This document shows, piece by piece, positions 27,016-64,000 of a DNA stretch of 64,000 bases. Within the stretch, counting starts at the first letter, position 1. Each line of letters starts with the position of its first letter. A program made the translations under genes and the position numbers. Under the pieces are notes generated by a model, which was given only the letters and a program-made list of their open reading frames with translations, made no database searches and was not told the origin of the DNA. This stretch comes from Nemertoderma westbladi (lineage: Eukaryota > Animalia > Xenacoelomorpha): assembly GCA_032718475.1 (NCBI GenBank), contig JAUCBJ010008128.1, positions 1-64,000 on the forward strand. The letters are read 5' to 3'.

Positions 27016-27159
27016 ACCCGGAAAGGTCATTGGATCCGATGAAACCGCCTCTCGGACTGGGTAAACCCCTGGTTGGGTGGAGGAGACCGCCAGTTGTAGG
27101 GGGGAAGCCGCCGGTTGTGGTTGGAGGGGGGAACCTGCCAGTTGGAGGGGTGATAACTC

Positions 27160-30980: not shown

Positions 30981-32129
30981 ACAAACTAATCAGACAACTC
31001 AACAAATCTCTAAAAACACCCCCTCGAGCCCTACCTCCGAAAAGCGACGACGAAATAGTGGAAGCTCTCATCGCCGAACTACACCGTGACGTAGACCGAA
31101 CACCCAATGTCTCCCCCAAAAATGTACCTCAGGCCAACCTTACGAAACAACAACGAACTGTCCTCAAATCACTCAAGTCCAACACTAACATTCGTATCTG
31201 TAGGGGCGATAAATCTGGTAACACTGTAATCCTAGATACCAATGACTATAAAAATGAATGCTTACGTATTTTAAGAGACCCTAACACCTATACTACATTA
31301 ACTAAAGACCCTACTAATAAATACAGAACACAACTTGACGCACTACTACAAACCTGTAATATCGACACCAAACACACACTACACCCACTACTACTACCTA
31401 AACACCCTAAGATAGCGTACTTCTACTGCACTATTAAAGACCACAAGGACAGGGAATCATGGATAAACTGGGGCGACGGTAGACTCTTACCTAAGGGCAG
31501 ACCTATAGTTGCCACCATGGGCACCCTTCTACACCCACTTTCCCGCTTTGCTAACGACCTTCTAGAACCCGCGGTCACTCGCCTTGAGTCTAACTTGAAA
31601 GGGACAGACGACTTCCTATCAGCCCTCCCTAGAGATATTGGACCCGACTGCACTCTGATTTCACTGGACGTCGTAGACATGTACACTAACATTACCCATG
31701 ATGTAGGATGTAGGGCATTACGACAAGCACTCTCCGAGGACACGCACTTCACACAACAAACACTCATCTCATTAGATAACTTTATACTACTCGTCCGATT
31801 TATACTTGAACATAACTACTTCACTTTTGATAACACACTATACCTTCAATTACGAGGCGCAGCCATGGGTAGCAGTTTCTCGAAAAACTACGCTAGCCTA
31901 ACCATATCTAGATTAGAGATACACTTCCTCCACATCCTGAACAACCCCATTAATAACTACCTAAACGCGAGTGTATCAAACAGACTCCCTAACCCAACTA
32001 ACCTGGATACTAACACACCCGATCTGGATCTAACCACCCCTACCAACCCGAGCTCAACAACCACTGATCCCAACACTACTAACAAGACCAGATATAATCC
32101 TAGTATAACTCCCCTAAAATCTATCAAAA

Positions 32130-35100: not shown

Positions 35101-35210
35101 AACATAACTACCCCTGAAACTACCATAAGTACCCATGGTACTAACATAAATACCCCTGAAACTAACAAAACTAACATAACTACCACTGGAACTAATATAA
35201 CTACCCCGGA
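32130..35210 (+). repeat. Codon-phased minisatellite (21-bp ACTAACATAACTACCCCTGGA plus 9-bp ACTAACGAA variants; TNITTPE/G)
   Basis: Visible tandem structure lying between RT motifs GAAMGS and FVDD. Confidence 0.92.
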
Positions 35211-35966
35211 ACCTACCCCTTCCACCCCAGTCTGTAATAATATAACTACCTCAGTCACCTATAAAACCAAACTAGCACCAAACACTACACCTAACCCCGT
35301 TTTCTCAGATCCAATAATAACGACCCCAATATCTAACCTTACACCTCCAGATTCCAACATCAATATTACAGAAACTATCCTATCTATCTCAGATCCTAAT
35401 ATAACCATAACTAACGAAACTACCTCAACCTCGGATCCAAACATAACCCCCCCAGACGATAATACAACTTACCCTATTCCATTCTACAAACGGTTTGTTG
35501 ACGACAGCTATGGTATAGTACAACGTATATTAAGTGAACAGGACATTCACAACATACAGAAAATCACTAACTCCTCTTGTAACGACTTATTCCAAAACTC
35601 TCATATACAATTCACCATTGAATACTCCCACACATCACTCCCATTCCTTGACGTCCTGACACAGATTAACAACGAAACACTAACAACTACATTATACAAA
35701 AAACCAACTAGCAATAAACTCCCGATTCACTACAATAGCTTCCATGATAAGAAATTACTACTATCCGTAATTCGTAGCCAACTCCTACGCATCCACCGCA
35801 GATGTAGCGAGCCTAACGACTATACCAAACTCAGAGACGAATTCCTTGGCGAATGTCTACTCAGGCAGTACCCCCAGAACCTCCTTAACAAACTTAAACA
35901 TTGGACTCCCCAAACTAGACCTAAAGACACTAACTCGAAACCCACATTTTACCTAGGCACCAACAG

Positions 35967-36533
35967 ATGATGGGAATGTTCCAAAATACTGTACGTAGAT
36001 ACTCCAAAAACTACGATCTTGACATCAACATTAATGTAGTCACGAAGAATCCCATATCACTAGGACAAATACTAACCAAAAATAAAACTCAATCGCAAAC
36101 ACACATAAATAACACCACTAATGAGCCATGTAACTCTAGCCGCTGCCTTACATGCAAAACTATCACTAACATACAACAGACACCATGGGGTGAAAAGATA
36201 AAAGGACACTATACATGTAAGTCCCACACTGTATGTTACTTGGCCTGGTGCCACTGCCACCCTACTCTATACTACATAGGCCAAACGAGACAGAAACTTC
36301 ACGAACGCTTTAATGGACACCACAACAACATACGACACTACCCCTCACGAGCCAATGACGGAAAAACACATGAAGACATACTCCTAGCTAGGCACATATA
36401 CGGATGTGGTGTAGAAAATCTACGCGCCGCAACCATAAAACAATTCACAAACATACCCGAACTACTAGCGACGGAAGCTAACCTAATCTATACATACAAC
36501 CCCCCACTTAACGTAGCAAGACCAGCAATCTAA
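35967..36533 (+). CDS. GIY-YIG endonuclease domain of the PLE (frameshifted from RT)
   Basis: VCYLAWC...YYIGQT...ERFNGH...E..LI.....PLN. Confidence 0.85.
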   Translation: MMGMFQNTVRRYSKNYDLDININVVTKNPISLGQILTKNKTQSQTHINNTTNEPCNSSRCLTCKTITNIQQTPWGEKIKGHYTCKSHTVCYLAWCHCHPTLYYIGQTRQKLHERFNGHHNNIRHYPSRANDGKTHEDILLARHIYGCGVENLRAATIKQFTNIPELLATEANLIYTYNPPLNVARPAI

Positions 36534-37521: not shown

Positions 37522-38955
37522 CTAAATTAGTGATAGTTGAAAGCTACATTCGCGATTGTTTAGTGTCGGGCTTAATTTTCTGATGAATAGTGCCTCTTTA
37601 ATGCGTAGATAGTATTTGGTTTGAGCTGTTCCTATAATCTTGAAGTTGTCTAAACTAAAGGTGTGCCCCGTTTCCCCCCAGTGGTTAAATACGGCTGAGT
37701 TCCTCGGAGGATTAAACTGTTTTCGCACTAATGACCTGCCTGTGTGTTCACACACGCAAACCGCCAATTGTCTTTCGGTTTCACCGAAATAGGAAGCAGT
37801 ACAACTTCCACAGGTAAATTTATAGATGACATTGGAACGTATGTGCGATGGAAGGCGGTCTTTATACGAAAACATGTCTGATATTCTACGTGTAGGTTTA
37901 AGTATAACGTTAAGATCTATGTGCGGAAAGGCTGAGCGGAATAGTTTGGAAATTCGAGATTTCAGTTGTAGGGCGTGTTTGCCAGTGTAGGGAAGTACAA
38001 AAACAATTTCACGTTTCTTAACCGTTGCCATGGTAGACTTAGCACTATGGTAGCGTTCTAGAACGTGCTTAGTGGATTTGTTTAGAAGCGAGATGGGATA
38101 GCCATTCTTAGTTAGGATTGTGAATAGTTTATTTAAATCCGTATTGAACAGTATAAACGAAGAGCTAATCATTAGTGCGCGGTATATCAGTGTGAAAGCA
38201 AGGCCAATCTTATATTTCATAGGAATAAAACTGTCAAACTTTGTGTATAGGCCGGTGAAGGTGGGCTTATGATATATTGAGGTGGAAAATGAGTTATTTT
38301 GGAGACGCGTGATTTGGACATCCAGGAATGATAATTTACCATTACTTTCAGTTTCGCATGTGAATTTTATATTAGGGTGTTTTGAGTTAAGATAAGTCAA
38401 GAATTCTAGACAGTTGGATTGTGTTTTGAAAAGAAGGAAAGTATCATCAACATACCGTCGGTACAGTAGGGGTTTAAAGGAGCCAGGGCATTCCTTTAAC
38501 CACTGTTTCTCGTGATATGCCAGGAAAGCGTTAGCAAATGACGGCCCTAGTGGACTCCCCATTGCAACGCCATCCAATTGTGAGTATAACTGTCCGTTAA
38601 AAACAAAGTTATTGTCCTTAACAGACAATTCAAGTAATTTCCTAACTGTAACGGCGTTAATTCCATTAATATCGGTTGTATCCTTAAACAATTCCTCTAC
38701 TATAATATCTATTGTCTCAGAGAGGGGGACATTTGTGAAAAGCGAGGTGACATCAAAACTAGCCATGAACAGTTTGGTATCTGGGTGGATTTCGGATATT
38801 TCCTTAACAAATGTAAATGTGTCCTTCACTGTGTAATCATTCTCAGTAATGCCTGTCATCAGTGGTACTAGGTACTTAGCTAAATTGTAGGCTGGAGTAT
38901 GAATAGATGAAATAATAGGCCTCATTGGAATATTATCTTTATGTACTTTAGGGGG
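37522..38955 (-). mobile_element. 5'-truncated Penelope/Poseidon-like element with open RT + GIY-YIG
   Basis: PKVHK..PMRPIIS, SFDVTSLFTNVP, GVAMGSPLGP, YRRYVDDTF, LSFLDV, NVIYKFTCGSCTASYFGETER. Confidence 0.92.
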
Positions 38956-39146
38956 ACTTTAGTTGAAACGTTGGTTTATGTCTGTATGTCTTATTACAGT
39001 ATTATGTATTATGTATTTGTTATTGTTTAATTTAATATTAATTTGATTTGAAATGAAGTGGAAAATTATTTCTTTGGCGATATCGTTCATTATTCTATTA
39101 AGATTTCCCTCATCAAAAACTGTTTCCGATTGTATCTTTATCTAAT

Positions 39147-43666: not shown

Positions 43667-44357
43667 TAAGTAACTTAGGAAGTAGGATTATTTGTTTTAG
43701 TGTCCAATAAGTAGTACTTCACTGAGAGCGTACAGCTTCGGTGTAGGGACTCCTTCCCAGAAATAATAACATCTATTTCAATATTGTAACAAAACCCCTC
43801 ATACGGGTACATATAAATCCACTAAATCTATTAATAAAATAGTAGGCCTGTTATACAACACTTAGGTCTTAATATCAGTTGGACTACTGCTTAAATAACG
43901 GTAATAAAGTAAGTTAAAGTAACCAAGTAACCCTAAAATATTCAGAAATTCAATTATTCTAAAATAATTGACATACCGGTATTTACCATAGGCTTATTAC
44001 CTTTATTTCTATAAATTTGGGCTGAAATCATACCGGTATTCTGTAATTAATTCTAGTTCATAATTATACTTATATATACTATAAGTGTAAGCTGCATACC
44101 GGTATTCACGATAGGCCTATTATATATTTATATATATTTGTGCTAAAATTATATACCGGTACTCTGTGACAAATCTAGTCTGTAATAATACTTATATATA
44201 TACTATAAGCATACCGGTATTCTAATATATTATATATATATCACGCTACACTGAGTAGCAGTATCGGTAATTAATTATTAGGCTAACAGTGATACTGAAT
44301 TACTAGACTTGTTTTAACTGTATTTATAGCCGTAGGCATTCAACTGTGTAAACAAAC

Positions 44358-46271
44358 ATGTCAGACACAACCCAATCACTGTCGGATAGTCTCTTAGAAA
44401 GTGTTAGAATGACTGTTAGACAGTGTCTTAAAAAGATCAATGACCCAGATCCAAGTCTAGAACATCCTAGATCCAAGTCTAAGTCACCTACTATTGTAAA
44501 AAAGGCCATCCCTACTGTAGTAGTGTCAGACCCTAGGCTAGTAGAACAACGTAGGTCTATCATCGGCACTCGGGCCCAAGTCAAGCGGGATCAAGAAGCA
44601 GCTGTCAAACAGCAGCAACATCCTAGCCAAGAACCTAGTTCTCAGCGGCCCGATAGCTCCAGTAGTTCGGATACTCCTGAGCGGACGCCCGAACGCGGAG
44701 CGAAGATGGCGGATACGGTTTATGATGAGTGGCCAACCTTTGAAGAATCAACCGACGCCACTTCTTCTCAAGTGGAAAGCGAAGTGGAAAGCGAATTAAC
44801 AGCAGCAGAGAAGCCGCGAACTAGAGACGCCATTGACATCTATCTGTCAGACTATCAGCGATTCCTAGGAGACGAAGAGTTGAGGAGACGACTGTCTGGA
44901 CTTCGCCCTAATAGTGAAGGAACCAAGCTTGTGTTGGACGCAATCGATGCGGAAATGTTAGCTGCGAACCAAGCTAAATTTGATGAACGACTCCGCCTCG
45001 TTAGAGTCCAAGAAGAACAAATAAAGAAAAAACAGATAGAGGACCGAAAGGCAGCAGCAGTAACGGCGGCAGAAGCAGAAGCAGAAAGAAAGGCAGTGGC
45101 GGCAGAAGCAGAATCAAAAAGAAAAGCAACGGCGGCAGAGGCAGAAGCAAAAAGAAAAGCAGCGGTGGCAGAAGCAGAACGGAGAGCGTCTGAGGAGACG
45201 ACCCAACTAGAGTTGGAAAATCTGCAAGAGACGCAAGACAACATAAATAAACAGTTAACTGCTAGTCACATGCAGATGATGAGTCGATTTACTCCCAAAC
45301 GCCAAGAATACACATCATCGGAAGAAGGCGAGACCACCGATCCTGAAGGCGGAGGAAATAGATCTCGTCTAAGCAGGCTTAGAAAAACATCTCACCATCA
45401 CAAATTGCCTGATTTGCCCCCAGCGGTTAGAAGACAACTAGCTAGCACAGACTTAGGTAGTACAGAACCTACAGAACAAATTATTCAGGTCAAAAGACTC
45501 CCTACAATAGTTGATGAGCCTGAAATAATTAGGCCTGTCGTTCCCAAAGCCACTCCTGTGCTAGAGACCCCTGTACTTCCAGAGCTTAACTCTAAATTCC
45601 CTCTACACAGTACTACACTGCCTGTACCCGGTAGAACAGTCCATGAGAATATCCCTGTCCTGGAAGCTGAGAGAGAAATCAAAGATTTGTCTCCCGTCGT
45701 CCCGCGTCAGCCCGCTACAATGTTGGCGACTCCCGCTTCGGCGGTCGAGTGGGTAGAGGAGGGACGGCGGGGGATGAATCTCCTGCTCGGACAGATGCAG
45801 GAGACTGTCCACCAACTTAAGGGAACAGTAAGGGAAGGTAGGGCCGAATTGCAAGAAGTGCAGCAAAGTATCGCTCTAGAACGCGACAAATTAGTCAATA
45901 TACAAAAAGCGATACCAATACCCCCTGTAACATTGTGTCAACCTGTTAGGTCTGAAGTATTACATGCACAAGGTGTGGAGCCTACACGCATCTATACTGC
46001 TAGTGAAGTAGAAACTCCTATAGCAAACCCTATTGAGGGTGATTATAAACCTGTTGTTAATGATATTCCCTATAGACCTGATAATAATCCGAGAAATTTA
46101 TATACCGATAATTCGATATTAAATAACACGATGGCCCAAGAAAGCTTTACGCGTCAGATGGCTAGAACAGAAGCCCGCCAAGCGGTCAAAGTGGGAGAAA
46201 TCGTCAAATTCAATGGAGATGAGATGAGATTCAATGCAGATAGGCTGATAAGGGGGGGGGGGGGGGGGTAA
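44358..46271 (+). pseudogene. Truncated BEL/Pao Gag of B2
   Basis: Clear homology to the B1 ORF N-terminus with an internal in-frame gap; the last ~14 codons are unrelated flank. Confidence 0.88.
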
Positions 46272-46904
46272 CTTCGAATAAAAGTTTACCCCTCTCCTGC
46301 CAGGTGAAATTCGATGCAAATTACATTACAAATTACACAAATTACATCAAAAATAAATCTCGGTTGGTTAGTTTTCCAAGCGGCGTCAAGAAGAGTTAAC
46401 TGGTTAATAGGTAGGTACTGCACTGCTGGCGCATCCTGGGGCTCGGCTGGCAGCTGGCGGACACCGGCTGTCACTCATCCTGGACCTGTCCTGCATTGTT
46501 TATTTGACATAAGGTAGCGGCAGCCACACTCTTTAAATCGGCAGTGATTTTTTATGTCCTTTTATTTGACTTTTTTGTCATTTTTTTTTTACGAATTATG
46601 CATAATGACTTTTGTTGTCCATTTAATGACTTTTATTTTTCTTTTAATGACTTTTTATGTATGTATTTCTTCAAACTGTCAGACTGCTGATTTCTGGACT
46701 GTCAGACAGTTGATTTCACTATGCCTGTCTGCCTGTGCCAAAACATTCCATGATTCCATGATTTATAGACTATGAGATAGATTTCCATATGCGCCTGTGG
46801 TAAAAAGACTCTATATTTAATAGTTTGTGGTTGTTGTCGATAATCGATTACCACATGACGTAGCAAAACACTCATTTTATAGCCAAAAACAATTACCAAT
46901 TGAT

Positions 46905-47400
46905 GGAAAGGAGCAGGTTAAGGCCGAGTTTTCTAACCAAAACAATAAACAGTCACTTTACCAAATCAGGGAAAGGAGCAGGTTACAGAGACGGGATTTT
47001 CTAACCAAAACAATAAACGATCACTTAACTAATTGAGGGAAAGGAGCAGGTTACAGAGGCGGGATTTTCTAACCAAAACAATAAACGATCACTTAACTTA
47101 TTGAGGGAAAGGAGCAGGTTACAGAGGCGGGATTTTCTAACCAAAACAATAAACGATCATTTAACTAATTGAGGGAAAGGGACAGGTTACAGAGGCGGAA
47201 TTTTCTAACCAAAACAATAAACGATCACTTAACTTATTGAGGAAAAGGAGCAGGTTACAGAGGCTGGATTTTCTAACCAAAACAATAAACGATCATTTAA
47301 CTAATTGAGGGAAAGGGACAGGTTACAGAGGCGGAATTTTCTAACCAAAACAATAAACGATCACTTAACTAATTGAGGGAAAGGATCAGGTTACAGAGAC
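46905..47400 (+). repeat. 68-bp tandem repeat (~7 copies)
   Basis: GAGGGAAAGGAGCAGGTTACAGAGGCGGGATTTTCTAACCAAAACAATAAACGATCACTTAACTAATT; unit starts at 47035, 47103, 47171 and onward. Confidence 0.92.
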
Positions 47401-48125
47401 GATAAAACTAATACAGTAATAGGCCTAAATTATGTGAAAGGTATATCCACATTTTAAAAATCCTGCAATCCAGTTTGGCCTATCAATTATTTAAAATTTA
47501 TTAGCACAACCGGTATGCCTACCTGCTACCATTACCGTATTTAAATGGTAGGCTACACAGTAGGCCTATAGCAGTACCGGTGCCGGTACCGGTATTAAAA
47601 TACAGAAATACCTGCTTTATACCTAAATCTGTACATACAATACAGCAAAATAGTGCTATATATACTAATACCGGTACTGATAGCCTGAGAGAACAGCAGT
47701 AGAGAAACCGGTAGCATGGAACCTAACATTAGACTTTTGGAGGACATAAAAAATAAAAAAAAAGGACAAAAAAAGGATTTAAACGGACAATAAAATTATG
47801 CGCTTTAAATCACTTAGCTTTAAGAAGGCCTACCTGTTTTCAGTCTGCATGCGTGTTGTGCACTTCTTACTGGTCCGCAATGCCTAATCTAATATCACAT
47901 ATGGATTATTCTCCATAGGAATACATTACATACGCACATACGCGTATGTGCATACGGATACGGCAAATGCATACGGATACGGATACGGCGAAAAGTTAAA
48001 CCCGTTATTATTGAGTTTCGTTTATTTTTTGGTTATAATAACGTGTCACTGTAACCTGCTTCTTTCACTAAATCTATATTTTTACATTGAGGCGGGATAC
48101 GGTTAATTCACCAAGATGGGATTTG

Positions 48126-48189
48126 AAAAGATTACGGTAAAGCAAAAAAAAAGGGGGGGGGGGCTTTTTTTGCTTTACCGTAATCTTTT
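48126..48189. repeat. Hairpin with ~25-bp stem and G-run loop
   Basis: AAAAGATTACGGTAAAGCAAAAAAA ... TTTTTTTGCTTTACCGTAATCTTTT. Confidence 0.85.
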
Positions 48190-48508
48190 TCGCTAGATTT
48201 GAATGGATTACAGGCTACAGTATAAGTAAGAAGGCCTTGGCTTACACATGCAACTTTTGTTACGGCAACAAGGTTCTTTGTATCGAGTTTATCAGAACAG
48301 TCTAAATTGTTTTGGTTTTGTGTTTGTATTACAGTATTAGATGGTTGTCCGTTACAGTCTTAATTATTTAGGAAATATTTTTTTTGAATAATATTTACTT
48401 TGAAATTCGGTCCATCAATATTATCCATACGGTACATTTTTCTATTAGTAATTGGAGTTCGAGCTAATGTGTATATTTTTTTATATATTTTTTTATTTTT
48501 TTATCTAG

Positions 48509-48691
48509 ATCAATATGTATCCAATTCCCCATATAAAGATTCGACAACATACACTATTGATCTACCGGAAGATGGTCATCAAGAGTCCGTTACATTAGAA
48601 CCCTTAGATTATCTGAGTAACAGCTACAACAACGTGTTTGAGATTCACTGCCCACCACAGCGCGATAACCTTAACAATAATTGTAATAGAG
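48509..48691 (+). CDS. Predicted upstream exon of the tyrosine recombinase gene
   Basis: Pyrimidine tract + TAG acceptor, open phase 1-1 (DQYVSNSP...NCNR), GTGAGT donor. Confidence 0.5.
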
Positions 48692-49251
48692 GTGAGTTAA
48701 GTTTTAAACCTGCATTACATTTCTGGGATGAGAGTGGGGGGACTCGACCACTGGACGCTCATCCCAATCTCGGTTAATTAATATCCCGTCTCAATGTTAA
48801 ATTCTAAATTTAGGGAAAGGATCAGGTTACAGTGGCACATTATTTTAACCAAAACAATAAACTAAATACATTAGAACAGGTTAGTACGATTAGGTTAGTA
48901 GGTTAGAACAGTCCCAACCCCCCCCCCCCCCCCCCCTATCTGGCCTTTCGAATGCGAATTTCATTATTTGATTATTGTTAAACCTGAAATAAACCTTTTA
49001 AACTTGTTATCCAATTATTATTTACATAAATAAATTGTATTTCTGAACAACTTTTACAATATTATTTGCATAAGCCTTCTGTTTGTAAAAGTAGCACTAG
49101 GGGGCGTTCACAATGGACTACTAGCAAACACCGGTACCACATTTACTGTATAAATATTTAGGTGGTAGGGTGGTGGTGGGGGTTCTGTCTATACCGTAGT
49201 TTATCTATCTATAGTAAAGTATACAAGGTGTCTTATTTATTTTATTTAAAG

Positions 49252-49404
49252 TAACCGAATTAGACGATCTGGAGGACATAATTGAAGAAGATGAAGATAA
49301 TGATGAAAATTCCGCCGAAGCCGATTATTCTACCGATGGCGATAATTCCACAGATACCGGAAGTGATAATTCCGCCGATGAAGATAATTACGGAAAACAA
49401 GGAG
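49252..49404 (+). CDS. Predicted acidic exon of the tyrosine recombinase gene
   Basis: AAG acceptor, phase 1-1, VTELDDLEDIIEEDEDNDENSAEADYSTDGD..., GTAGGC donor. Confidence 0.5.
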
Positions 49405-49517
49405 GTAGGCCTATATATCAATAAATATTTACTTAAATAGTTATAAACTTAAACTTGTTTTTTACCACTATTTCGCTTTATCTTTTATTAAAGAAATAAG
49501 CTACAAAAAAGTACAAA

Positions 49518-49553
<36 letters not shown>

Positions 49554-50009
49554 ACACCATTTTCGGACAACTCTTCGATTTATCACTCTTAGCGTTTCAC
49601 AATTGTTTGGTTTTGACTAAAATTTTGAATATAGGTGCCTAAGATGCTATTCTACATGATAGGTCAGAAAAAAATATTTTTTCGCTATTTAATATTATTT
49701 AATACTAGTTAACAATAAAAATAACTTGGTTGCGCTTAAAACCCTAAGGCTTTTACAGTTTTGAATCTAATCACATGAAAGTTTTTTTATATGATAGATC
49801 AAAGATGGGGCAACATAACTATCAGGCGAAATTTTGTGAAAATAGTAATTTCAAAAGGATTCCCTAAATGGAAATTTACATAACTTGAAAACTAAAAGAG
49901 CTATTAAATAGCGGTTTTCAGATTTGGAAACACCATTCAATGGTGCATTATAATATATCATAAAAAAATTCCGACATATTTTGGACCAAAATGGTGTACC
50001 CCCCCTTAA
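49518..50009. mobile_element. Kolobok-like MITE in a predicted intron
   Basis: TIRs GGGGGGTACACCATTTT / AAAATGGTGTACCCCCCC flanked by TTTA and TTAA; left G-run expanded to ~31. Confidence 0.65.
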
Positions 50010-50199
50010 GAATAAAATTTCGTATTACATGGGAAAAAAACGTAGAACATTTTTTTCAATAATATTCTCTCGACCCTTTATAAACCCTTTCTGGCACTCG
50101 GTAAATAAAATGCATCGAGAATAATGAAAAAAGATCTACTTTTTCCCCAACTAATAAATAATCAGTAAAATCAGTAAATCAGTAAATATTTTGGAGCGC

Positions 50200-50308
50200 A
50201 GGACAATTCGGTCCGGACAATTCGGTCCCGGATAATCGGACAATTCAGTCTCGGACAATTCAGTCCCATTAATTTTGTATTTTGGGACCGAATTGTCCGG
50301 GACCGAAT
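50200..50308. repeat. Small foldback of GGACAATTCGGTCC(C) units (DNA transposon terminus-like remnant)
   Basis: Four direct copies followed by inverted GGGACCGAATTGTCC copies. Confidence 0.6.
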
Positions 50309-50843
50309 TTAATTGGTACTACTGTACTATAGGCCTATAATGGTGAATGTTCTAGAACCTTAATAGATATTATTATATGGTAGCTAGTGTTTTTTTTGAA
50401 AATAAAAAAATTTCACTTTTTTTGTTAACATTATTATTTATGGTAGCTATTATGGTGTTTTTATGGAGGTTGTGAATTATTTACTAGCTAGTCTAGTAAT
50501 AGTATGTATTTAAAATGTTTAAAACTGATTTCTTTGTGTGTGTTATGAACTGTATGTGTTGTTGGTTGGTTAACAAGCCTAAATTATTATCCTAAATAAT
50601 TTAATCCAAAATTGCAACCCCGATCCCGAAAACGGGAACCCGGATTTCCTCTACATTTTGAATTTTTTTACATTTTCTACATCTTTCTACATTTTGGTGC
50701 AGACTTAGTACCTACAGTAGTGAGACAATTTTGTAATGAAACTCATAAAACCGCTGAATATTTTACTCCATTGTCTGGTTGCCCCCCCCCCCCCTCTCCC
50801 ATTCTCCCACACTTGTCAATACCGTGTCATTAAATTTTTTTAG

Positions 50844-52718
50844 GTGGAAATAGTAAAGAATGCGAATGTACCACCGAGAATATGGACAACAAAATGTAAA
50901 CGTAAACGTAATAAATTCCAATGTTCCCTATGTAAAAGAAAAATGCAGGACCTTCCCAGACACCTACGTTTAACTCATAATATCATTGCAAAGAACACTG
51001 TTAATTATCAAGTCGCTGTATCCCGATTGATGTCTTCTAGTAAAAAAATTAAGCGCCGGGTTTCTAAATGTGCCGTGGCAGGTTGCAACGCATATGTTAG
51101 GCGCTTAGCTTCCCACTTAACCCGACAGCACGGATTACCTCGGTATCTAGATGGGTTAACGACTTCACCCAAAAAAAACCCAGAACGCTTAAAATATCTG
51201 AGACACCCCGACAGATATAATTTCCCCGTGATGAAATGTCCGGTCAAGGTTGAGAAAGATATACCATTGCTTAATCAATTCCAAGACTTTCTGTGCTGCC
51301 CAATCTCACCTGTGCGTCAAAGTAATTTGCGTATGATGACGTTATTGTCTGTCAAGAAGTTTTTCACTTTGATGTGGGATGCGAAACCTATCTCCTCAGA
51401 TAAATTACGTATAACAGAAATGTTTGATACCGTCTATATATTCAAGGCCTACGAAGCCCTTACGAAAGAAATAGTACGAGGAGGTAAAATTCGACAACCT
51501 ACTACTATCCACGCTTATTTGCAGCGAATGTTAATATTCTACGACTTTGCCCTTGTTGACCCCAAAATGAAGTGTTTGATCGATCGCGCTGATATTCATG
51601 CAGCGGCAGCATGTATAAATCAGATAATGAAACACTGTAAACCAGATGTAAAGAAGCGGTTATTTGCAGTCCAAAAAGAAGCGTGTGAGAAAATGCCAGA
51701 CGCTGAAGAATTGCTTAGTTATCAAAAGGCACCATTTGCTTGTGACATTAAACGCGCTATAAAGCAATTACAAGATGGAAACTGGGATGATAATATTAAA
51801 TTGTGGCATATGCAGTCCTTTTTAATGTCAGTGATTGTTTACTGCAACGGATCCAGAGCCACAGCAGCCACAAATATGACTCTGAACGAATTTAGCAAAG
51901 CCACACCTTTAGATAATGATCCTGAAAAATTAACTATAACTGTTGACAGTCACAAAACTTGTAAATATATCGGTCCACAATACGTTGTAGTAAGCACAGA
52001 AATATTCAATCTTTTGAATCTCTGGGTAGAATGTGGCAGAGCGTTGTATTCCTTTCCATGCCAGTTGGAAAACGTATTTCTTTCCCAGAGCGGAGCGTGT
52101 TATATAAGTGTCACTCAACGACTACAATCTCTATGGAAATTAATTTTTCCACATTCTCATGCCAAAGCTGGTGCCACATCACTGCGGCATTCTGTTAGTT
52201 ATTGTAATCAGCGGTTCCCTGGTACTGAAGACAGTATAGAAAACGTATGTAAATCTATGGCACATTCACGACATACGCAAAAGAAAACCTATGACGCTGT
52301 TCTACGTCCCAGCAACGCCGGTCAAGCCTATAGACGTATTTTATGTGCTGCGCAATATGTTGCTGCGGACAAAGTTTCTCATGGGGATTATAATACCGAA
52401 CGTCAATATCGCAATGGACCTGGGGATGATAATAGTGAACTTCAATATCGCAATGAACCTGGGGATGATAATAGTGAACGTGACAATCAGGTTAAAATTT
52501 GGTCCGGTAAAAGGCGCAAGGTCTCTTGGACTGTGCAGGAGAACTGCACTCTGCGAGCCTTTTTCTCTGAAGAACTTAATGGCCGCCGAATAAACAGTGC
52601 AAAACGAGAGGAAGTCGCCCGTTTAATACCCACTAAGACTTTGCCTGAAATAATGCGCCGGATTATGGTAATGAAAAGACAATTAAAAAATAATCCGGAA
52701 CGGTTTACTTGTAATTAG
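50844..52718 (+). CDS. Tyrosine recombinase with two N-terminal C2H2 fingers and a C-terminal Myb/SANT-like motif (terminal exon)
   Basis: CSLC...HLRLTH, CAVAGC...HLTRQH; catalytic pattern NGSR, HKT, TSLRH, MAHS...TY; KRRKVSWTVQEN...; begins at a TTTTTTTAG acceptor rather than an ATG. Confidence 0.82.
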   Translation: MEIVKNANVPPRIWTTKCKRKRNKFQCSLCKRKMQDLPRHLRLTHNIIAKNTVNYQVAVSRLMSSSKKIKRRVSKCAVAGCNAYVRRLASHLTRQHGLPRYLDGLTTSPKKNPERLKYLRHPDRYNFPVMKCPVKVEKDIPLLNQFQDFLCCPISPVRQSNLRMMTLLSVKKFFTLMWDAKPISSDKLRITEMFDTVYIFKAYEALTKEIVRGGKIRQPTTIHAYLQRMLIFYDFALVDPKMKCLIDRADIHAAAACINQIMKHCKPDVKKRLFAVQKEACEKMPDAEELLSYQKAPFACDIKRAIKQLQDGNWDDNIKLWHMQSFLMSVIVYCNGSRATAATNMTLNEFSKATPLDNDPEKLTITVDSHKTCKYIGPQYVVVSTEIFNLLNLWVECGRALYSFPCQLENVFLSQSGACYISVTQRLQSLWKLIFPHSHAKAGATSLRHSVSYCNQRFPGTEDSIENVCKSMAHSRHTQKKTYDAVLRPSNAGQAYRRILCAAQYVAADKVSHGDYNTERQYRNGPGDDNSELQYRNEPGDDNSERDNQVKIWSGKRRKVSWTVQENCTLRAFFSEELNGRRINSAKREEVARLIPTKTLPEIMRRIMVMKRQLKNNPERFTCN

Positions 52719-55700
52719 TTTTATATTTCAATCAAACTGTTTGAACTCGGAACGGATGGTTTACTTGTAATTATTTTTCATATTTCAATCAAACTGTTTG
52801 AACTCGGAACGGATGGTTTACTTGTAATTAGTTTTATATTTCAATCAAACTGTCAAACTGTTTGAACTCGGAACGGATGGTTTACTTGTAATTATTTTTT
52901 ATATTTCAATCAAACTGTTTGAACTCGGAACGGATGGTTTACTTGTAATTATTTTTTATATTTCAATCAAACTGTTTGAACTCGGAACGGATGGTTTACT
53001 TGTAATTATTTTTCATATTTCAATCAAACTGTTTGAACTCGGAACGGATGGTTTACTTGTAATTAGTTTTATATTTCAATCAAACTGTTTGAACTCGGAA
53101 CGGATGGTTTACTTGTAATTATTTTTTATATTTCAATCAAACTGTTTGAACTCGGAACGGATGGTTTACTTGTAATTATTTTTTATATTTCAATCAATCT
53201 GTTTGAACTCGGAACGGATGGTTTACTTGTAATTATTTTTCATATTTCAATCAAACTGTTTGAACTCGGAACGGATGGTTTACTTGTAATTATTTTTTAT
53301 ATTTCAATCAAACTGTTTGAACTCGGAACGGATGGTTTACTTGTAATTATTTTTCATATTTCAATCAAACTGTTTGAACTCGGAACGGATGGTTTACTTG
53401 TAATTAGTTTTATATTTCAATCAAACTGTTTGAACTCGGAACGGATGGTTTACTTGTAATTATTTTTCATATTTCAATCAAACTGTTTGAACTCGGAACG
53501 GATGGTTTACTTGTAATTAGTTTTATATTTCAATCAAACTGTCAAACTGTTTGAACTCGGAACGGATGGTTTACTTGTAATTATTTTTTATATTTCAATC
53601 AAACTGTTTGAACTCGGAACGGATGGTTTACTTGTAATTATTTTTCATATTTCAATCAAACTGTTTGAACTCGGAACGGATGGTTTACTTGTAATTAGTT
53701 TTATATTTCAATCAAACTGTCAAACTGTTTGAACTCGGAACGGATGGTTTACTTGTAATTAGTTTTATATTTCAATCAAACTGTCAAACTGTTTGAACTC
53801 GGAACGGATGGTTTACTTGTAATTATTTTTTATATTTCAATCAAACTGTCAAACTGTTTGAACTCGGAACGGATGGTTTACTTGTAATTATTTTTTATAT
53901 TTCAATCAAACTGTTTGAACTCGGAACGGATGGTTTACTTGTAATTATTTTTTATATTTCAATCAAACTGTTTGAACTCGGAACGGATGGTTTACTTGTA
54001 ATTATTTTTTATATTTCAATCAAACTGTCAAACTGTTTGAACTCGGAACGGATGGTTTACTTGTAATTATTTTTTATATTTCAATCAAACTGTCAAACTG
54101 TTTGAACTCGGAACGGATGGTTTACTTGTAATTATTTTTTATATTTCAATCAAACTGTCAAACTGTTTGAACTCGGAACGGATGGTTTACTTGTAATTAT
54201 TTTTTATATTTCAATCAAACTGTTTGAACTCGGAACGGATGGTTTACTTGTAATTATTTTTTATATTTCAATCAAACTGTTTGAACTCGGAACGGATGGT
54301 TTACTTGTAATTATTTTTTATATTTCAATCAAACTGTCAAACTGTTTGAACTCGGAACGGATGGTTTACTTGTAATTATTTTTTATATTTCAATCAAACT
54401 GTTTGAACTCGGAACGGATGGTTTACTTGTAATTATTTTTTATATTTCAATCAAACTGTCAAACTGTTTGAACTCGGAACGGATGGTTTACTTGTAATTA
54501 TTTTTCATATTTCAATCAAACTGTTTGAACTCGGAACGGATGGTTTACTTGTAATTATTTTTTATATTTCAATCAAACTGTTTGAACTCGGAACGGATGG
54601 TTTACTTGTAATTATTTTTTATATTTCAATCAAACTGTCAAACTGTTTGAACTCGGAACGGATGGTTTACTTGTAATTATTTTTCATATTTCAATCAAAC
54701 TGTTTGAACTCGGAACGGATGGTTTACTTGTAATTATTTTTTATATTTCAATCAAACTGTCAAACTGTTTGAACTCGGAACGGATGGTTTACTTGTAATT
54801 ATTTTTTATATTTCAATCAAACTGTCAAACTGTTTGAACTCGGAACGGATGGTTTACTTGTAATTATTTTTTATATTTCAATCAAACTGTTTGAACTCGG
54901 AACGGATGGTTTACTTGTAATTACTTTTTATATTTCAATCAAACTGTCAAACTGTTTGAACTCGGAACGGATGGTTTACTTGTAATTATTTTTTATATTT
55001 CAATCAAACTGTTTGAACTCGGAACGGATGGTTTACTTGTAATTATTTTTTATATTTCAATCAAACTGTTTGAACTCGGAACGGATGGTTTACTTGTAAT
55101 TATTTTTTATATTTCAATCAAACTGTCAAACTGTTTGAACTCGGAACGGATGGTTTACTTGTAATTATTTTTTATATTTCAATCAAACTGTTTGAACTCG
55201 GAACGGATGGTTTACTTGTAATTATTTTTTATATTTCAATCAAACTGTCAAACTGTTTGAACTCGGAACGGATGGTTTACTTGTAATTATTTTTCATATT
55301 TCAATCAAACTGTTTGAACTCGGAACGGATGGTTTACTTGTAATTATTTTTCATATTTCAATCAAACTGTTTGAACTCGGAACGGATGGTTTACTTGTAA
55401 TTATTTTTTATATTTCAATCAAACTGTCAAACTGTTTGAACTCGGAACGGATGGTTTACTTGTAATTATTTTTCATATTTCAATCAAACTGTTTGAACTC
55501 GGAACGGATGGTTTACTTGTAATTATTTTTTATATTTCAATCAAACTGTCAAACTGTTTGAACTCGGAACGGATGGTTTACTTGTAATTATTTTTTATAT
55601 TCAATCAAACTGTCAAACTGTTTGAACTCGGAACGGATGGTTTACTTGTAATTATTTTTTATATTTCAATCAAACTGTTTGAACTCGGAACGGATGGTTT

Positions 55701-58700
55701 ACTTGTAATTATTTTTTATATTTCAATCAAACTGTTTGAACTCGGAACGGATGGTTTACTTGTAATTATTTTTTATATTTCAATCAAACTGTTTGAACTC
55801 GGAACGGATGGTTTACTTGTAATTATTTTTTATATTTCAATCAAACTGTTTGAACTCGGAACGGATGGTTTACTTGTAATTATTTTTTATATTTCAATCA
55901 AACTGTTTGAACTCGGAACGGATGGTTTACTTGTAATTACTTTTTATATTTCAATCAAACTGTCAAACTGTTTGAACTCGGAACGGATGGTTTACTTGTA
56001 ATTATTTTTTATATTTCAATCAAACTGTTTGAACTCGGAACGGATGGTTTACTTGTAATTATTTTTTATATTTCAATCAAACTGTTTGAACTCGGAACGG
56101 ATGGTTTACTTGTAATTATTTTTTATATTTCAATCAAACTGTCAAACTGTTTGAACTCGGAACGGATGGTTTACTTGTAATTATTTTTCATATTTCAATC
56201 AAACTGTTTGAACTCGGAACGGATGGTTTACTTGTAATTATTTTTTATATTTCAATCAAACTGTCAAACTGTTTGAACTCGGAACGGATGGTTTACTTGT
56301 AATTATTTTTTATATTTCAATCAAACTGTCAAACTGTTTGAACTCGGAACGGATGGTTTACTTGTAATTATTTTTTATATTTCAATCAAACTGTTTGAAC
56401 TCGGAACGGATGGTTTACTTGTAATTACTTTTTATATTTCAATCAAACTGTCAAACTGTTTGAACTCGGAACGGATGGTTTACTTGTAATTATTTTTTAT
56501 ATTTCAATCAAACTGTTTGAACTCGGAACGGATGGTTTACTTGTAATTATTTTTTATATTTCAATCAAACTGTCAAACTGTTTGAACTCGGAACGGATGG
56601 TTTACTTGTAATTATTTTTTATATTTCAATCAAACTGTTTGAACTCGGAACGGATGGTTTACTTGTAATTATTTTTTATATTTCAATCAAACTGTCAAAC
56701 TGTTTGAACTCGGAACGGATGGTTTACTTGTAATTATTTTTTATATTTCAATCAAACTGTTTGAACTCGGAACGGATGGTTTACTTGTAATTACTTTTTA
56801 TATTTCAATCAAACTGTCAAACTGTTTGAACTCGGAACGGATGGTTTACTTGTAATTATTTTTTATATTTCAATCAAACTGTTTGAACTCGGAACGGATG
56901 GTTTACTTGTAATTATTTTTTATATTTCAATCAAACTGTTTGAACTCGGAACGGATGGTTTACTTGTAATTATTTTTTATATTTCAATCAAACTGTTTGA
57001 ACTCGGAACGGATGGTTTACTTGTAATTATTTTTTATATTTCAATCAAACTGTTTGAACTCGGAACGGATGGTTTACTTGTAATTATTTTTTATATTTCA
57101 ATCAAACTGTTTGAACTCGGAACGGATGGTTTACTTGTAATTATTTTTTATATTTCAATCAAACTGTCAAACTGTTTGAACTCGGAACGGATGGTTTACT
57201 TGTAATTATTTTTTATATTTCAATCAAACTGTTTGAACTCGGAACGGATGGTTTACTTGTAATTATTTTTTATATTTCAATCAAACTGTCAAACTGTTTG
57301 AACTCGGAACGGATGGTTTACTTGTAATTATTTTTTATATTTCAATCAAACTGTTTGAACTCGGAACGGATGGTTTACTTGTAATTATTTTTTATATTTC
57401 AATCAAACTGTTTGAACTCGGAACGGATGGTTTACTTGTAATTATTTTTTATATTTCAATCAAACTGTTTGAACTCGGAACGGATGGTTTACTTGTAATT
57501 ATTTTTTATATTTCAATCAAACTGTTTGAACTCGGAACGGATGGTTTACTTGTAATTATTTTTTATATTTCAATCAAACTGTTTGAACTCGGAACGGATG
57601 GTTTACTTGTAATTATTTTTTATATTTCAATCAAACTGTTTGAACTCGGAACGGATGGTTTACTTGTAATTATTTTTTATATTTCAATCAAACTGTTTGA
57701 ACTCGGAACGGATGGTTTACTTGTAATTATTTTTTATATTTCAATCAAACTGTTTGAACTCGGAACGGATGGTTTACTTGTAATTATTTTTTATATTTCA
57801 ATCAAACTGTTTGAACTCGGAACGGATGGTTTACTTGTAATTATTTTTTATATTTCAATCAAACTGTTTGAACTCGGAACGGATGGTTTACTTGTAATTA
57901 TTTTTTATATTTCAATCAAACTGTTTGAACTCGGAACGGATGGTTTACTTGTAATTATTTTTTATATTTCAATCAAACTGTTTGAACTCGGAACGGATGG
58001 TTTACTTGTAATTATTTTTTATATTTCAATCAAACTGTCAAACTGTTTGAACTCGGAACGGATGGTTTACTTGTAATTATTTTTTATATTTCAATCAAAC
58101 TGTCAAACTGTTTGAACTCGGAACGGATGGTTTACTTGTAATTATTTTTTATATTTCAATCAAACTGTTTGAACTCGGAACGGATGGTTTACTTGTAATT
58201 ATTTTTTATATTTCAATCAAACTGTTTGAACTCGGAACGGATGGTTTACTTGTAATTATTTTTTATATTTCAATCAAACTGTTTGAACTCGGAACGGATG
58301 GTTTACTTGTAATTATTTTTTTTATTTCAATCAAACTGTTTGAACTCGGAACGGATGGTTTACTTGTAATTATTTTTTATATTTCAATCAAACTGTTTGA
58401 ACTCGGAACGGATGGTTTACTTGTAATTATTTTTTATATTTCAATCAAACTGTCAAACTGTTTGAACTCGGAACGGATGGTTTACTTGTAATTATTTTTT
58501 ATATTTCAATCAAACTGTTTGAACTCGGAACGGATGGTTTACTTGTAATTATTTTTTATATTTCAATCAAACTGTTTGAACTCGGAACGGATGGTTTACT
58601 TGTAATTATTTTTTATATTTCAATCAAACTGTCAAACTGTTTGAACTCGGAACGGATGGTTTACTTGTAATTATTTTTTTTATTTCAATCAAACTGTTTG

Positions 58701-61700
58701 AACTCGGAACGGATGGTTTACTTGTAATTATTTTTTATATTTCAATCAAACTGTTTGAACTCGGAACGGATGGTTTACTTGTAATTATTTTTTATATTTC
58801 AATCAAACTGTCAAACTGTTTGAACTCGGAACGGATGGTTTACTTGTAATTATTTTTTATATTTCAATCAAACTGTTTGAACTCGGAACGGATGGTTTAC
58901 TTGTAATTATTTTTTATATTTCAATCAAACTGTTTGAACTCGGAACGGATGGTTTACTTGTAATTATTTTTTATATTTCAATCAAACTGTTTGAACTCGG
59001 AACGGATGGTTTACTTGTAATTATTTTTTATATTTCAATCAAACTGTTTGAACTCGGAACGGATGGTTTACTTGTAATTATTTTTTATATTTCAATCAAA
59101 CTGTTTGAACTCGGAACGGATGGTTTACTTGTAATTATTTTTTATATTTCAATCAAACTGTTTGAACTCGGAACGGATGGTTTACTTGTAATTATTTTTT
59201 ATATTTCAATCAAACTGTTTGAACTCGGAACGGATGGTTTACTTGTAATTATTTTTTATATTTCAATCAATACTGTTTGAACTCGGAACGGATGGTTTAC
59301 TTGTAATTATTTTTTATATTTCAATCAAACTGTCAAACTGTTTGAACTCGGAACGGATGGTTTACTTGTAATTATTTTTTTTATTTCAATCAAACTGTTT
59401 GAACTCGGAACGGATGGTTTACTTGTAATTATTTTTTATATTTCAATCAAACTGTTTGAACTCGGAACGGATGGTTTACTTGTAATTATTTTTTATATTT
59501 CAATCAAACTGTCAAACTGTTTGAACTCGGAACGGATGGTTTACTTGTAATTATTTTTTATATTTCAATCAAACTGTTTGAACTCGGAACGGATGGTTTA
59601 CTTGTAATTATTTTTTATATTTCAATCAAACTGTTTGAACTCGGAACGGATGGTTTACTTGTAATTATTTTTTATATTTCAATCAAACTGTTTGAACTCG
59701 GAACGGATGGTTTACTTGTAATTATTTTTTATATTTCAATCAAACTGTCAAACTGTTTGAACTCGGAACGGATGGTTTACTTGTAATTATTTTTTATATT
59801 TCAATCAAACTGTTTGAACTCGGAACGGATGGTTTACTTGTAATTATTTTTTATATTTCAATCAAACTGTTTGAACTCGGAACGGATGGTTTACTTGTAA
59901 TTATTTTTTATATTTCAATCAAACTGTTTGAACTCGGAACGGATGGTTTACTTGTAATTATTTTTTATATTTCAATCAAACTGTTTGAACTCGGAACGGA
60001 TGGTTTACTTGTAATTATTTTTTATATTTCAATCAAACTGTTTGAACTCGGAACGGATGGTTTACTTGTAATTATTTTTTATATTTCAATCAAACTGTTT
60101 GAACTCGGAACGGATGGTTTACTTGTAATTATTTTTTATATTTCAATCAAACTGTTTGAACTCGGAACGGATGGTTTACTTGTAATTATTTTTTATATTT
60201 CAATCAAACTGTTTGAACTCGGAACGGATGGTTTACTTGTAATTATTTTTTATATTTCAATCAAACTGTTTGAACTCGGAACGGATGGTTTACTTGTAAT
60301 TATTTTTTATATTTCAATCAAACTGTTTGAACTCGGAACGGATGGTTTACTTGTAATTATTTTTTATATTTCAATCAAACTGTTTGAACTCGGAACGGAT
60401 GGTTTACTTGTAATTATTTTTTATATTTCAATCAAACTGTTTGAACTCGGAACGGATGGTTTACTTGTAATTATTTTTTATATTTCAATCAAACTGTTTG
60501 AACTCGGAACGGATGGTTTACTTGTAATTATTTTTTATATTTCAATCAAACTGTTTGAACTCGGAACGGATGGTTTACTTGTAATTATTTTTTATATTTC
60601 AATCAAACTGTTTGAACTCGGAACGGATGGTTTACTTGTAATTATTTTTTATATTTCAATCAAACTGTTTGAACTCGGAACGGATGGTTTACTTGTAATT
60701 ATTTTTTTTATTTCAATCAAACTGTTTGAACTCGGAACGGATGGTTTACTTGTAATTATTTTTTATATTTCAATCAAACTGTTTGAACTCGGAACGGATG
60801 GTTTACTTGTAATTATTTTTTATATTTCAATCAAACTGTCAAACTGTTTGAACTCGGAACGGATGGTTTACTTGTAATTATTTTTTATATTTCAATCAAA
60901 CTGTTTGAACTCGGAACGGATGGTTTACTTGTAATTATTTTTTATATTTCAATCAAACTGTTTGAACTCGGAACGGATGGTTTACTTGTAATTATTTTTT
61001 ATATTTCAATCAAACTGTTTGAACTCGGAACGGATGGTTTACTTGTAATTATTTTTTATATTTCAATCAAACTGTCAAACTGTTTGAACTCGGAACGGAT
61101 GGTTTACTTGTAATTATTTTTTATATTTCAATCAAACTGTTTGAACTCGGAACGGATGGTTTACTTGTAATTATTTTTTATATTTCAATCAAACTGTTTG
61201 AACTCGGAACGGATGGTTTACTTGTAATTATTTTTTATATTTCAATCAAACTGTTTGAACTCGGAACGGATGGTTTACTTGTAATTATTTTTTATATTTC
61301 AATCAAACTGTTTGAACTCGGAACGGATGGTTTACTTGTAATTATTTTTTATATTTCAATCAAACTGTTTGAACTCGGAACGGATGGTTTACTTGTAATT
61401 ATTTTTTATATTTCAATCAAACTGTTTGAACTCGGAACGGATGGTTTACTTGTAATTATTTTTTATATTTCAATCAAACTGTTTGAACTCGGAACGGATG
61501 GTTTACTTGTAATTATTTTTTATATTTCAATCAAACTGTTTGAACTCGGAACGGATGGTTTACTTGTAATTATTTTTTATATTTCAATCAAACTGTTTGA
61601 ACTCGGAACGGATGGTTTACTTGTAATTATTTTTTATATTTCAATCAATCTGTTTGAACTCGGAACGGATGGTTTACTTGTAATTATTTTTTATATTTCA

Positions 61701-64000
61701 ATCAAACTGTTTGAACTCGGAACGGATGGTTTACTTGTAATTATTTTTTATATTTCAATCAAACTGTTTGAACTCGGAACGGATGGTTTACTTGTAATTA
61801 TTTTTTATATTTCAATCAAACTGTTTGAACTCGGAACGGATGGTTTACTTGTAATTATTTTTTATATTTCAATCAAACTGTTTGAACTCGGAACGGATGG
61901 TTTACTTGTAATTATTTTTTATATTTCAATCAAACTGTTTGAACTCGGAACGGATGGTTTACTTGTAATTATTTTTTATATTTCAATCAAACTGTTTGAA
62001 CTCGGAACGGATGGTTTACTTGTAATTATTTTTTTTATTTCAATCAAACTTTTTGAACTCGGAACGGATGGTTTACTTGTAATTATTTTTTATATTTCAA
62101 TCAAACTGTTTGAACTCGGAACGGATGGTTTACTTGTAATTATTTTTTATATTTCAATCAAACTGTCAAACTGTTTGAACTCGGAACGGATGGTTTACTT
62201 GTAATTATTTTTTATATTTCAATCAAACTGTCAAACTGTTTGAACTCGGAACGGATGGTTTACTTGTAATTATTTTTTATATTTCAATCAAACTGTTTGA
62301 ACTCGGAACGGATGGTTTACTTGTAATTATTTTTTATATTTCAATCAAACTGTTTGAACTCGGAACGGATGGTTTACTTGTAATTATTTTTTATATTTCA
62401 ATCAAACTGTTTGAACTCGGAACGGATGGTTTACTTGTAATTATTTTTTTTATTTCAATCAAACTGTTTGAACTCGGAACGGATGGTTTACTTGTAATTA
62501 TTTTTTATATTTCAATCAAACTGTTTGAACTCGGAACGGATGGTTTACTTGTAATTATTTTTTATATTTCAATCAAACTGTCAAACTGTTTGAACTCGGA
62601 ACGGATGGTTTACTTGTAATTATTTCTTATATTTCAATCAAACTGTTTGAACTCGGAACGGATGGTTTACTTGTAATTATTTTTTATATTTCAATCAATC
62701 TGTTTGAACTCGGAACGGATGGTTTACTTGTAATTATTTTTTATATTTCAATCAAACTGTCAAACTGTTTGAACTCGGAACGGATGGTTTACTTGTAATT
62801 ATTTTTTTTATTTCAATCAAACTGTTTGAACTCGGAACGGATGGTTTACTTGTAATTATTTTTTATATTTCAATCAAACTGTTTGAACTCGGAACGGATG
62901 GTTTACTTGTAATTATTTTTTATATTTCAATCAAACTGTCAAACTGTTTGAACTCGGAACGGATGGTTTACTTGTAATTATTTTTTATATTTCAATCAAA
63001 CTGTTTGAACTCGGAACGGATGGTTTACTTGTAATTATTTTTTATATTTCAATCAAACTGTTTGAACTCGGAACGGATGGTTTACTTGTAATTATTTTTT
63101 ATACTTCAATCAAACTGTTTGAACTCGGAACGGATGGTTTACTTGTAATTATTTTTTATATTTCAATCAAACTGTTTGAACTCGGAACGGATGGTTTACT
63201 TGTAATTATTTTTTATATTTCAATCAAACTGTTTGAACTCGGAACGGATGGTTTACTTGTAATTATTTTTTATATTTCAATCAAACTGTTTGAACTCGTA
63301 ACGGATGGTTTACTTGTAATTATTTTTTATATTTCAATCAAACTGTTTGAACTCGGAACGGATGGTTTACTTGTAATTATTTTTTATATTTCAATCAATC
63401 TGTTTGAACTCGGAACGGATGGTTTACTTGTAATTATTTTTTATATTTCAATCAAACTGTCAAACTGTTTGAACTCGGAACGGATGGTTTACTTGTAATT
63501 ATTTTTTTTATTTCAATCAAACTGTTTGAACTCGGAACGGATGGTTTACTTGTAATTATTTTTTATATTTCAATCAAACTGTTTGAACTCGGAACGGATG
63601 GTTTACTTGTAATTATTTTTTATATTTCAATCAAACTGTCAAACTGTTTGAACTCGGAACGGATGGTTTACTTGTAATTATTTTTTATATTTCAATCAAA
63701 CTGTTTGAACTCGGAACGGATGGTTTACTTGTAATTATTTTTTATATTTCAATCAAACTGTTTGAACTCGGAACGGATGGTTTACTTGTAATTATTTTTT
63801 ATATTTCAATCAAACTGTTTGAACTCGGAACGGATGGTTTACTTGTAATTATTTTTTATATTTCAATCAAACTGTTTGAACTCGGAACGGATGGTTTACT
63901 TGTAATTATTTTTTATATTTCAATCAATCTGTTTGAACTCGGAACGGATGGTTTACTTGTAATTATTTTTTATATTTCAATCAAACTGTTTGAACTCGGA
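52696..64000 (+). repeat. 57-bp satellite array (65-bp variant with TCAAACTG duplicated), roughly 190 copies, running off the window
   Basis: GGAACGGATGGTTTACTTGTAATTATTTTTTATATTTCAATCAAACTGTTTGAACTC in near-perfect tandem. Confidence 0.98.

Follow-up and report, generated by a model that had tools for sequence, protein, structure and literature searches.

Tyrosine recombinases (YRs) that are native to animals and target repeats are poorly documented. CryptonV elements are introduced, in a one-line description in PMC8869645 that cites Kapitonov and Jurka (2012, Repbase Reports 12:2034), as cnidarian YR-encoding DNA transposons, some families of which insert specifically in microsatellites, and Kawato et al. 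(2023, PMC10871703) describe telomere-associated YRs of nimaviruses that combine C2H2 zinc fingers with SAM-like and YR domains and insert in telomere repeats. According to that paper, the nimavirus YRs are not close to DIRS, Enterprise or Cryptons (represented there by CryA, F, I and S) and were left without a transposon relative. For Cryptons in general, PMC13465315 gives a model of excision and re-insertion. Here we analyse a gene on the forward strand of a 64,000-nt stretch (the window; positions 1 to 64,000 of contig JAUCBJ010008128.1, assembly GCA_032718475.1) from Nemertoderma westbladi, which a first-pass annotation had described as a spliced C2H2–YR–Myb/SANT-like gene at 48509–52718. 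From the fold, the catalytic residues and the anatomy of related loci, a poorly characterised animal YR DNA element, as that annotation proposed, is the most likely reading: the gene would encode the integrase of a Crypton-type DNA transposon that targets repeats and moves by site-specific excision and re-insertion, its fingers and its C-terminal helix-turn-helix (HTH) domain reading arm repeats (probability about 0.7). The gene is a divergent further member of an existing, poorly described family and no new kind of system.

Likeness to CryptonV, judged against the one-line description, lies in the microsatellite insertion of related loci (4/21) and in the cnidarians among the named relatives; the window copy differs in having no true microsatellite at its flank and in passing, at its 3′ end, into a 57-bp satellite. 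In the literature searched, CryptonV is represented by its name and that one sentence: CryptonV-1_NV is an entry in the supplement list of PMC6681497, the accessible text of PMC5753468, PMC13465017, PMC3706591 and one bioRxiv centromere atlas adds at most the name, and the Glomhopper supplement (PMC13465315) has no CryptonV entry. The same searches, outside whose coverage lie subscription journals and Repbase Reports, gave no description of the recombinase family studied here and only Kawato et al. as a work joining tyrosine recombinase, nimavirus and Crypton.

With the nimavirus YRs the Nemertoderma protein (the query) shares the order C2H2, SAM-like, YR in a colinear alignment, and since this architecture is published in PMC10871703, the earlier statement that it was unfamiliar was overstated. 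Repeat-specific insertion is a feature of the nimavirus proteins. Unlike them, the query lies outside their clade, has predicted introns and lacks linked viral genes as far as the window extends; nimavirus YRs are found in viral genomes that measure several hundred kb. CryptonA, CryptonI and DUF3504 proteins resemble it as eukaryotic YR elements free of reverse transcriptase (RT) in which, according to PMC3212892 and the Glomhopper paper (PMC13465315), introns and domestication occur. According to Kojima and Jurka (2011, PMC3212892), neither CryptonA nor CryptonI has a C-terminal domain or terminal repeats; they do not fit, since the query family has a C-terminal HTH and some of its members have inverted ends. 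Neither the query nor any of 58 scanned relatives (42 + 16) gave a row for DUF3504 or for DUF3435, the domain considered for a Starship captain.

Domains, fold and family

All folded domains are carried by the last exon (50844..52718, + strand), which has 624 open codons, as judged from its open reading frame (ORF) and a structure model. Two C2H2 zinc fingers (C27/C30/H40/H45 and C76/C81/H91/H96; 50907..51131, +) are picked up at E 7e-14 by a family profile from which the query was left out, which bears out the C2H2 assignment of the first pass. The core-binding (SAM-like) and catalytic YR domains (51267..52337, +) were recognised by profile, alignment and fold, and the catalytic positions are occupied by R338 (51855), K371 (51954), R448 (52185), H474 (52263) and Y483 (52290), all on the + strand. 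In a residue alignment of the query with 146 of 150 listed relatives (four finger-only matches were left out), R338 is conserved in 143, H370 in 140, K371 in 144, R448 in 136, H474 in 133 and Y483 in 132 of the 146 relatives. At the position of the HxxR histidine (445) the query has Thr, as do 92/146 relatives, with Asn in 27/146. The R-K-(T)xxR-H-Y pattern previously read as intact is thus near-invariant in the family, and Thr in place of the HxxR His is a family-wide trait.

The family profile matches XerA (E 8.9e-8), and the structure model (predicted local distance difference test score, pLDDT, 78.9) retrieves XerA, XerH and Cre in Foldseek, with Z 17.2 and a root-mean-square deviation of 3.7 over 297 aligned residues against XerH. 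The fold comparison with Cre and Xer, on which the first-pass annotation had let its claim depend, therefore predicts a YR fold. Set against XerH, XerA, Cre and lambda integrase (PDB 5jjv, 5hxy, 1crx, 1z1b), the query shares the core-binding and catalytic fold (Z 13.7-17.2 over 270-300 residues) and the catalytic R, K, R, H and Y, but differs in its low identity (8-16%), in the Thr/Asn that its family has for the HxxR His, and in the extra fingers and C-terminal HTH. By its predicted Cre/Xer-type fold and its catalytic residues the query is a member of the tyrosine-recombinase superfamily, and phosphotyrosine-dependent strand exchange is its predicted activity. A Pfam scan of the query gave no YR match, a word-based homologue search returned none for the query and one for the alignment, and a single-sequence PDB search returned none.

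The C-terminal domain (52524..52691, +) is modelled as three folded helices, which the structure model and Foldseek present as a homeodomain-like HTH bundle. Foldseek found nothing for it at E≤0.001; its top matches were homeodomains (template modelling score, TM, 0.6-0.7), with Myb-type rows at ranks 19 and 47. Pfam gave 0 matches on the query domain and Myb_DNA-binding in 1/9 family domains (E 0.002), and a profile of the family's C-terminal domains did not score the query above shuffles (10.7 vs 10.5 for the best of 500 shuffles). 'Homeodomain-like HTH', a fold assignment that comes from Foldseek only, is the most that these data permit. Of the Myb/SANT-like C-terminus annotated earlier, the folded HTH bundle stands, while the Myb/SANT label is unconfirmed, homeodomains ranking above Myb in Foldseek. 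A 39-bp in-frame repeat (52382-52481, 2.6 copies) lies in the linker that joins the catalytic domain to the C-terminal one.

An exhaustive homologue search, with relatives accepted at E≤0.001, yielded 198 proteins (19 at 1e-10 and 0 at 1e-30) with 20-39% identity to the query, and 60 of the 159 core-bearing ones have fingers, core and C-terminal domain together. Named sources among the 25 relatives looked up were Paramuricea clavata, Clytia hemisphaerica, Asterias amurensis, Hoplias malabaricus, Gambusia affinis, a nimavirus and a Sedimenticola metagenome bin; the animals among them span octocoral, hydrozoan, starfish and fish, and the relative from the Sedimenticola bin is probably host DNA. 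Look-alikes in the Atlas are eukaryotic clusters, mostly of molluscs and chordates where the taxon is known. Phage_integrase was matched by 14/42 relatives at E≤0.01, 3 of them passing the curated cut-off; no family member appeared in a prokaryote genome scan or in three scans of viral contigs, the latter giving one phage integrase only. The query is colinear with the Trachysalambria nimavirus YR throughout the fingers and the core (23% across 487 aa). Four more nimavirus-type YRs obtain 1e-49 to 1e-53 with the family core profile, the rows of which are matches of the query with one nimavirus YR among them, but a phage integrase is not matched by it.

In a quick tree of 60 rows (without bootstrap or approximately unbiased test, and with a long branch for the query), a clade with a Shimodaira–Hasegawa-like approximate likelihood ratio (SH-aLRT) of 100 unites the seven nimavirus-type YRs and leaves the query out. 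The phylogenetic check proposed in the first pass thus separated the query from the nimavirus clade and gave it no well-supported group of its own. Because of the low identity and the lack of a well-supported subgroup, the behaviour of the relatives may not carry over to the query. Three of the proteins found (P0043, P0072 and P0092) have many copies of the same zinc-finger pair and little or no recombinase core.

Related elements and the flanks of the window copy

A metagenome scan for the family gave 21 loci, presumably of cnidarian origin, many of them too short for their ends to be judged. The YR is the sole long ORF in most, and no RT was found in five non-overlapping extra ORFs scanned from them. 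A simple repeat (microsatellite or telomere tract) abuts the element in 4/21 loci, and long inverted ends occur in 1/21. Locus L008 holds a 4.6-kb unit that begins directly behind (GAAT)n and bears TAGATTCAT at its two ends in inverted orientation; L015 has 300 nt of the L008-type left end (83%) after (AATG)n, L021 has the L008-type terminal motif after GGAT repeats, and in L019 (CCCTAA)9 separates two YR units. The end regions of this L008-type family are L008:1-60 and 4600-4647, L015:1104-1200 and L021:1839-1900, and all three loci have family-specific subterminal motif repeats. L006 (1-4701), a 4.7-kb unit, is bounded by terminal inverted repeats about 147 bp long. The right end of related elements lies 1.3-1.6 kb beyond the stop codon, and that arm contains short tandem repeats (L004, L006, L019). 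A poly(T) tract at L020 was dropped as an element end because the break that it adjoins is mid-gene.

Some of these loci have further features. In L019 (2682-7121) two different YR elements stand head to tail, each with its own repeated subterminal motif. The left junction of L008 reads ATGAAT-N6-ATTCAT, an inverted pair with a 6-bp spacer that resembles a recombinase core site. A second ORF in L006 (2979-3560) matches Bcl-2 (E 1.3e-6, just below the curated cut-off) and has a hydrophobic C-terminal tail; it is possibly an anti-apoptotic cargo carried by a recombinase transposon.

To the left of the window gene, a BEL/Pao gag ORF (44352..46228, +) breaks off at 46228, where a sister copy of 82% identity (13534-12044), the ORF of which has DUF1759, runs on; it is the likely insertion target and would lie outside the element. 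At the break, AGATTCA after a short GATGA repeat (46227..46233, +) is a candidate left end, a 7-mer shared with the left ends of L008 and L021. It was noticed post hoc, occurs 10 times in 52.7 kb over both strands, and is suggestive only. The first pass had overlooked this possible end and had set DIRS and Ngaro aside on the grounds that neither RT nor gag is linked to the gene. Gag does adjoin it upstream, as a truncated BEL/Pao copy, and the remainder of the statement stands: a DIRS, Ngaro or VIPER element is rejected because the upstream gag is BEL/Pao and no RT ORF lies between 46229 and the satellite.

On the right, tandem-repeat finding delimits a 57-bp satellite of about 192 copies (52696..64000, +) that occupies over 11 kb of the window and runs past its end. 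Its first unit provides the last codons and the stop of the gene, a start within the coding sequence that had also gone unremarked. A TAG variant is present in 7/190 units, all among the first 19. Three longer satellite motifs, searched with one mismatch allowed, had 0 matches upstream of 52690, and because no unit lies there the satellite is not a two-sided target.

Gene model and internal repeats

The four exons annotated earlier (48509..48691, 49252..49404, the 17-nt micro-exon 50703..50719 and 50844..52718, all +) have canonical AG/GT borders, and the phases of the predicted exons (1-1, 1-1 and 1-0) join them in a single open frame into the last exon, in agreement with the first pass. Splice sites were ranked over 46229-50900 with a generic, unfitted matrix among 225 donors and 235 acceptors. 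Both borders of the 48509 exon came out on top (acceptor 1/235, donor 48691 1/225); the 49252 exon, predicted to encode an acidic low-complexity peptide of a kind present in relatives too, has an acceptor at 7/235 and a donor (49404) at 2/225. Among the 29 open phase-1-to-0 candidates in its intron, the micro-exon, with its acceptor at 3/235, scores highest (13.8; the runner-up, at 9.3, uses the same acceptor). Its donor (50719, 24/225) and the 50844 acceptor (21/235) are weak, and a still weaker acceptor at 50854 (54/235) would let it be bypassed in frame.

The ORF 50844-52718 begins after a stop, and upstream splicing is needed because it has no Met ahead of the CxxC of the first finger. The earliest Met in the four-exon chain is residue 34 of the last exon, and the first pass overlooked that a start exon is missing. 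Three phase-1 ATG exons were located upstream of 48509; the best, a candidate first coding exon at 46304..46410 (+; ATG at 46314, phase-1 donor; acceptor 2/235, donor 3/225), would with the chain give a 774-aa protein, inside the length range of the relatives. The four-exon gene model together with 46304-46410 is a prediction from sequence. Splice-site-like borders occur also in related loci L004, L007 and L013.

Between the candidate first exon and the next lies a 68-bp tandem repeat (46898..47398, +; 7.4 copies by tandem-repeat finding), with an inverted dispersed copy of the unit at 48018..48073 (−) and another copy within an intron at 48807..48862 (+). Its motif AGGGA-N6-CAGGTTACA occurs nine times in the window, all in 46968-48831, and in 1/22 loci, once, in the subterminal repeats of L008. 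The 68-bp repeat may provide binding sites of the arm type, or it may be a small independent insertion. Kinship between the 68-bp and 57-bp units was rejected, their score of 34 being reached in 2261/3000 shuffles. An insertion resembling a miniature inverted-repeat transposable element (MITE), with 18-bp terminal inverted repeats, lies in an intron at 49546..50005 (no strand assigned); together with those at 48126-48189 and 50201-50309, hairpin and MITE-like insertions thus stand upstream of and within the predicted introns.

Readings of the locus and its surroundings

Phage integrases and Cryptons suggest a mechanism by analogy. Repeated subterminal arm sites would be recognised by the two zinc fingers and the C-terminal HTH, and the core domain would contact the short core sequence at the element terminus together with the target repeat; Y483 would then cut and rejoin strands via a Holliday junction, so that a circle is excised and re-inserted at a simple repeat. 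The window copy, the only one of the YR family in the window, probably inserted at the short GATGA repeat in the BEL gag (46228/46229), and the 57-bp satellite probably grew from the 3′ part of the element itself, in which case the right end would lie outside the window.

Several findings weigh against a transposon integrase. The query has Thr at 340, where Gly is kept in 139/146 relatives; it reaches at most about 30% identity over the core with any relative, and in the quick tree it joins no well-supported subgroup and has a terminal branch of 1.45. No simple repeat stands at the element end in 17/21 related loci (many being too short to tell), the clear-ended loci L008 and L021 have frameshifted or partial YRs, the flank of the window copy is a two-unit GATGA repeat within gag and no true microsatellite, and the candidate first exon is just 75 bp from the proposed left end, which leaves no obvious room for a promoter. 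A gene long resident in the host would account for four predicted introns that carry MITE-like insertions and for an ORF left unbroken amid decayed retroelements, and the strong splice sites, the long branch and the G-to-T change at 340 can all be read as marks of domestication from such an element, as documented for Cryptons (PMC3212892). The product would then be a nuclear protein that binds DNA or is still catalytic, perhaps working on the neighbouring satellite. We consider this unlikely: domesticated Crypton genes typically lose the tetrad, according to PMC3212892 and PMC13465315, whereas the query keeps it; splice-like borders are found in related element loci too; and the surroundings are a cluster of retroelements next to a satellite, in which a scan of 19 window ORFs or exons recognised no host gene. 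Far less probable still is an integrase of an endogenous large DNA virus of nimavirus type, or of a large cargo element, the body of which lies beyond the satellite or has decayed. Colinearity with the Trachysalambria YR, the multi-exon structure of some nimavirus YRs (PMC10871703) and the Bcl-2-like ORF of L006, which suggests a family able to carry cargo, speak for it, but the nimavirus-type clade excludes the query, no viral family was found among the scanned window ORFs, and the viral-contig scans brought up no family member.

The satellite has two possible histories, whichever reading of the gene holds. That it grew from the element rather than overran it is, in our view, probable. A pre-existing host array, serving as the target of the element or overrunning its right arm, would agree with the abrupt junction and with a first unit that differs just by a few missing bases and the TAG variant, and edge units of arrays often diverge anyway. 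We think it rather improbable, as targeted insertion would be expected to leave units on two sides and none lies upstream of 52690, and as the relatives have their right end well past the stop, with short tandem repeats in that arm. If element-derived, a satellite starting at the stop codon of the gene would show clearly that a transposon can give rise to a satellite.

A bolder proposal, which we put forward as a speculation, builds on the transposon-integrase reading: one large, little-described animal recombinase family, with modular finger and HTH readers and Thr/Asn for the HxxR His, would drive repeat-targeting transposons from cnidarians to fish and would have supplied the telomere-homing integrases of nimaviruses. 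The window copy would then be an active, deeply branching representative of it whose insertion took place at a GATGA micro-repeat and whose stop-codon region gave rise to a satellite of >11 kb. A link between CryptonV and nimaviruses, if true, would explain the source of the nimavirus homing integrases and would offer natural recombinases that place DNA into harmless repeats.

The rest of the window is rich in retroelement remnants. BEL/Pao-type gag-protease ORFs lie at 9495-14441 (−), 19426-22058 (+), 3101-5371 (+) and 44352-46228 (+), two of them with DUF1759; the upstream regions of the 9495 and 44352 copies, which are 82% identical, match as well. RVT_1 reverse-transcriptase fragments are found at 15209-16309 (−), 26910-27968 (+), 37522-38958 (−) and 28519-29052 (−), the first two near-identical in protein sequence. 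A 247-aa frame at 217-960 (−), which by eye resembles a PC4-type single-strand DNA-binding protein in its motif, had no Pfam match at E≤1 and none of use in the Atlas. The region 28868-36533 (+) presumably represents a Penelope-like RT/GIY-YIG element, and in-frame 21-bp repeats at 29933-30964 and 32105-35215 enlarge its ORF.

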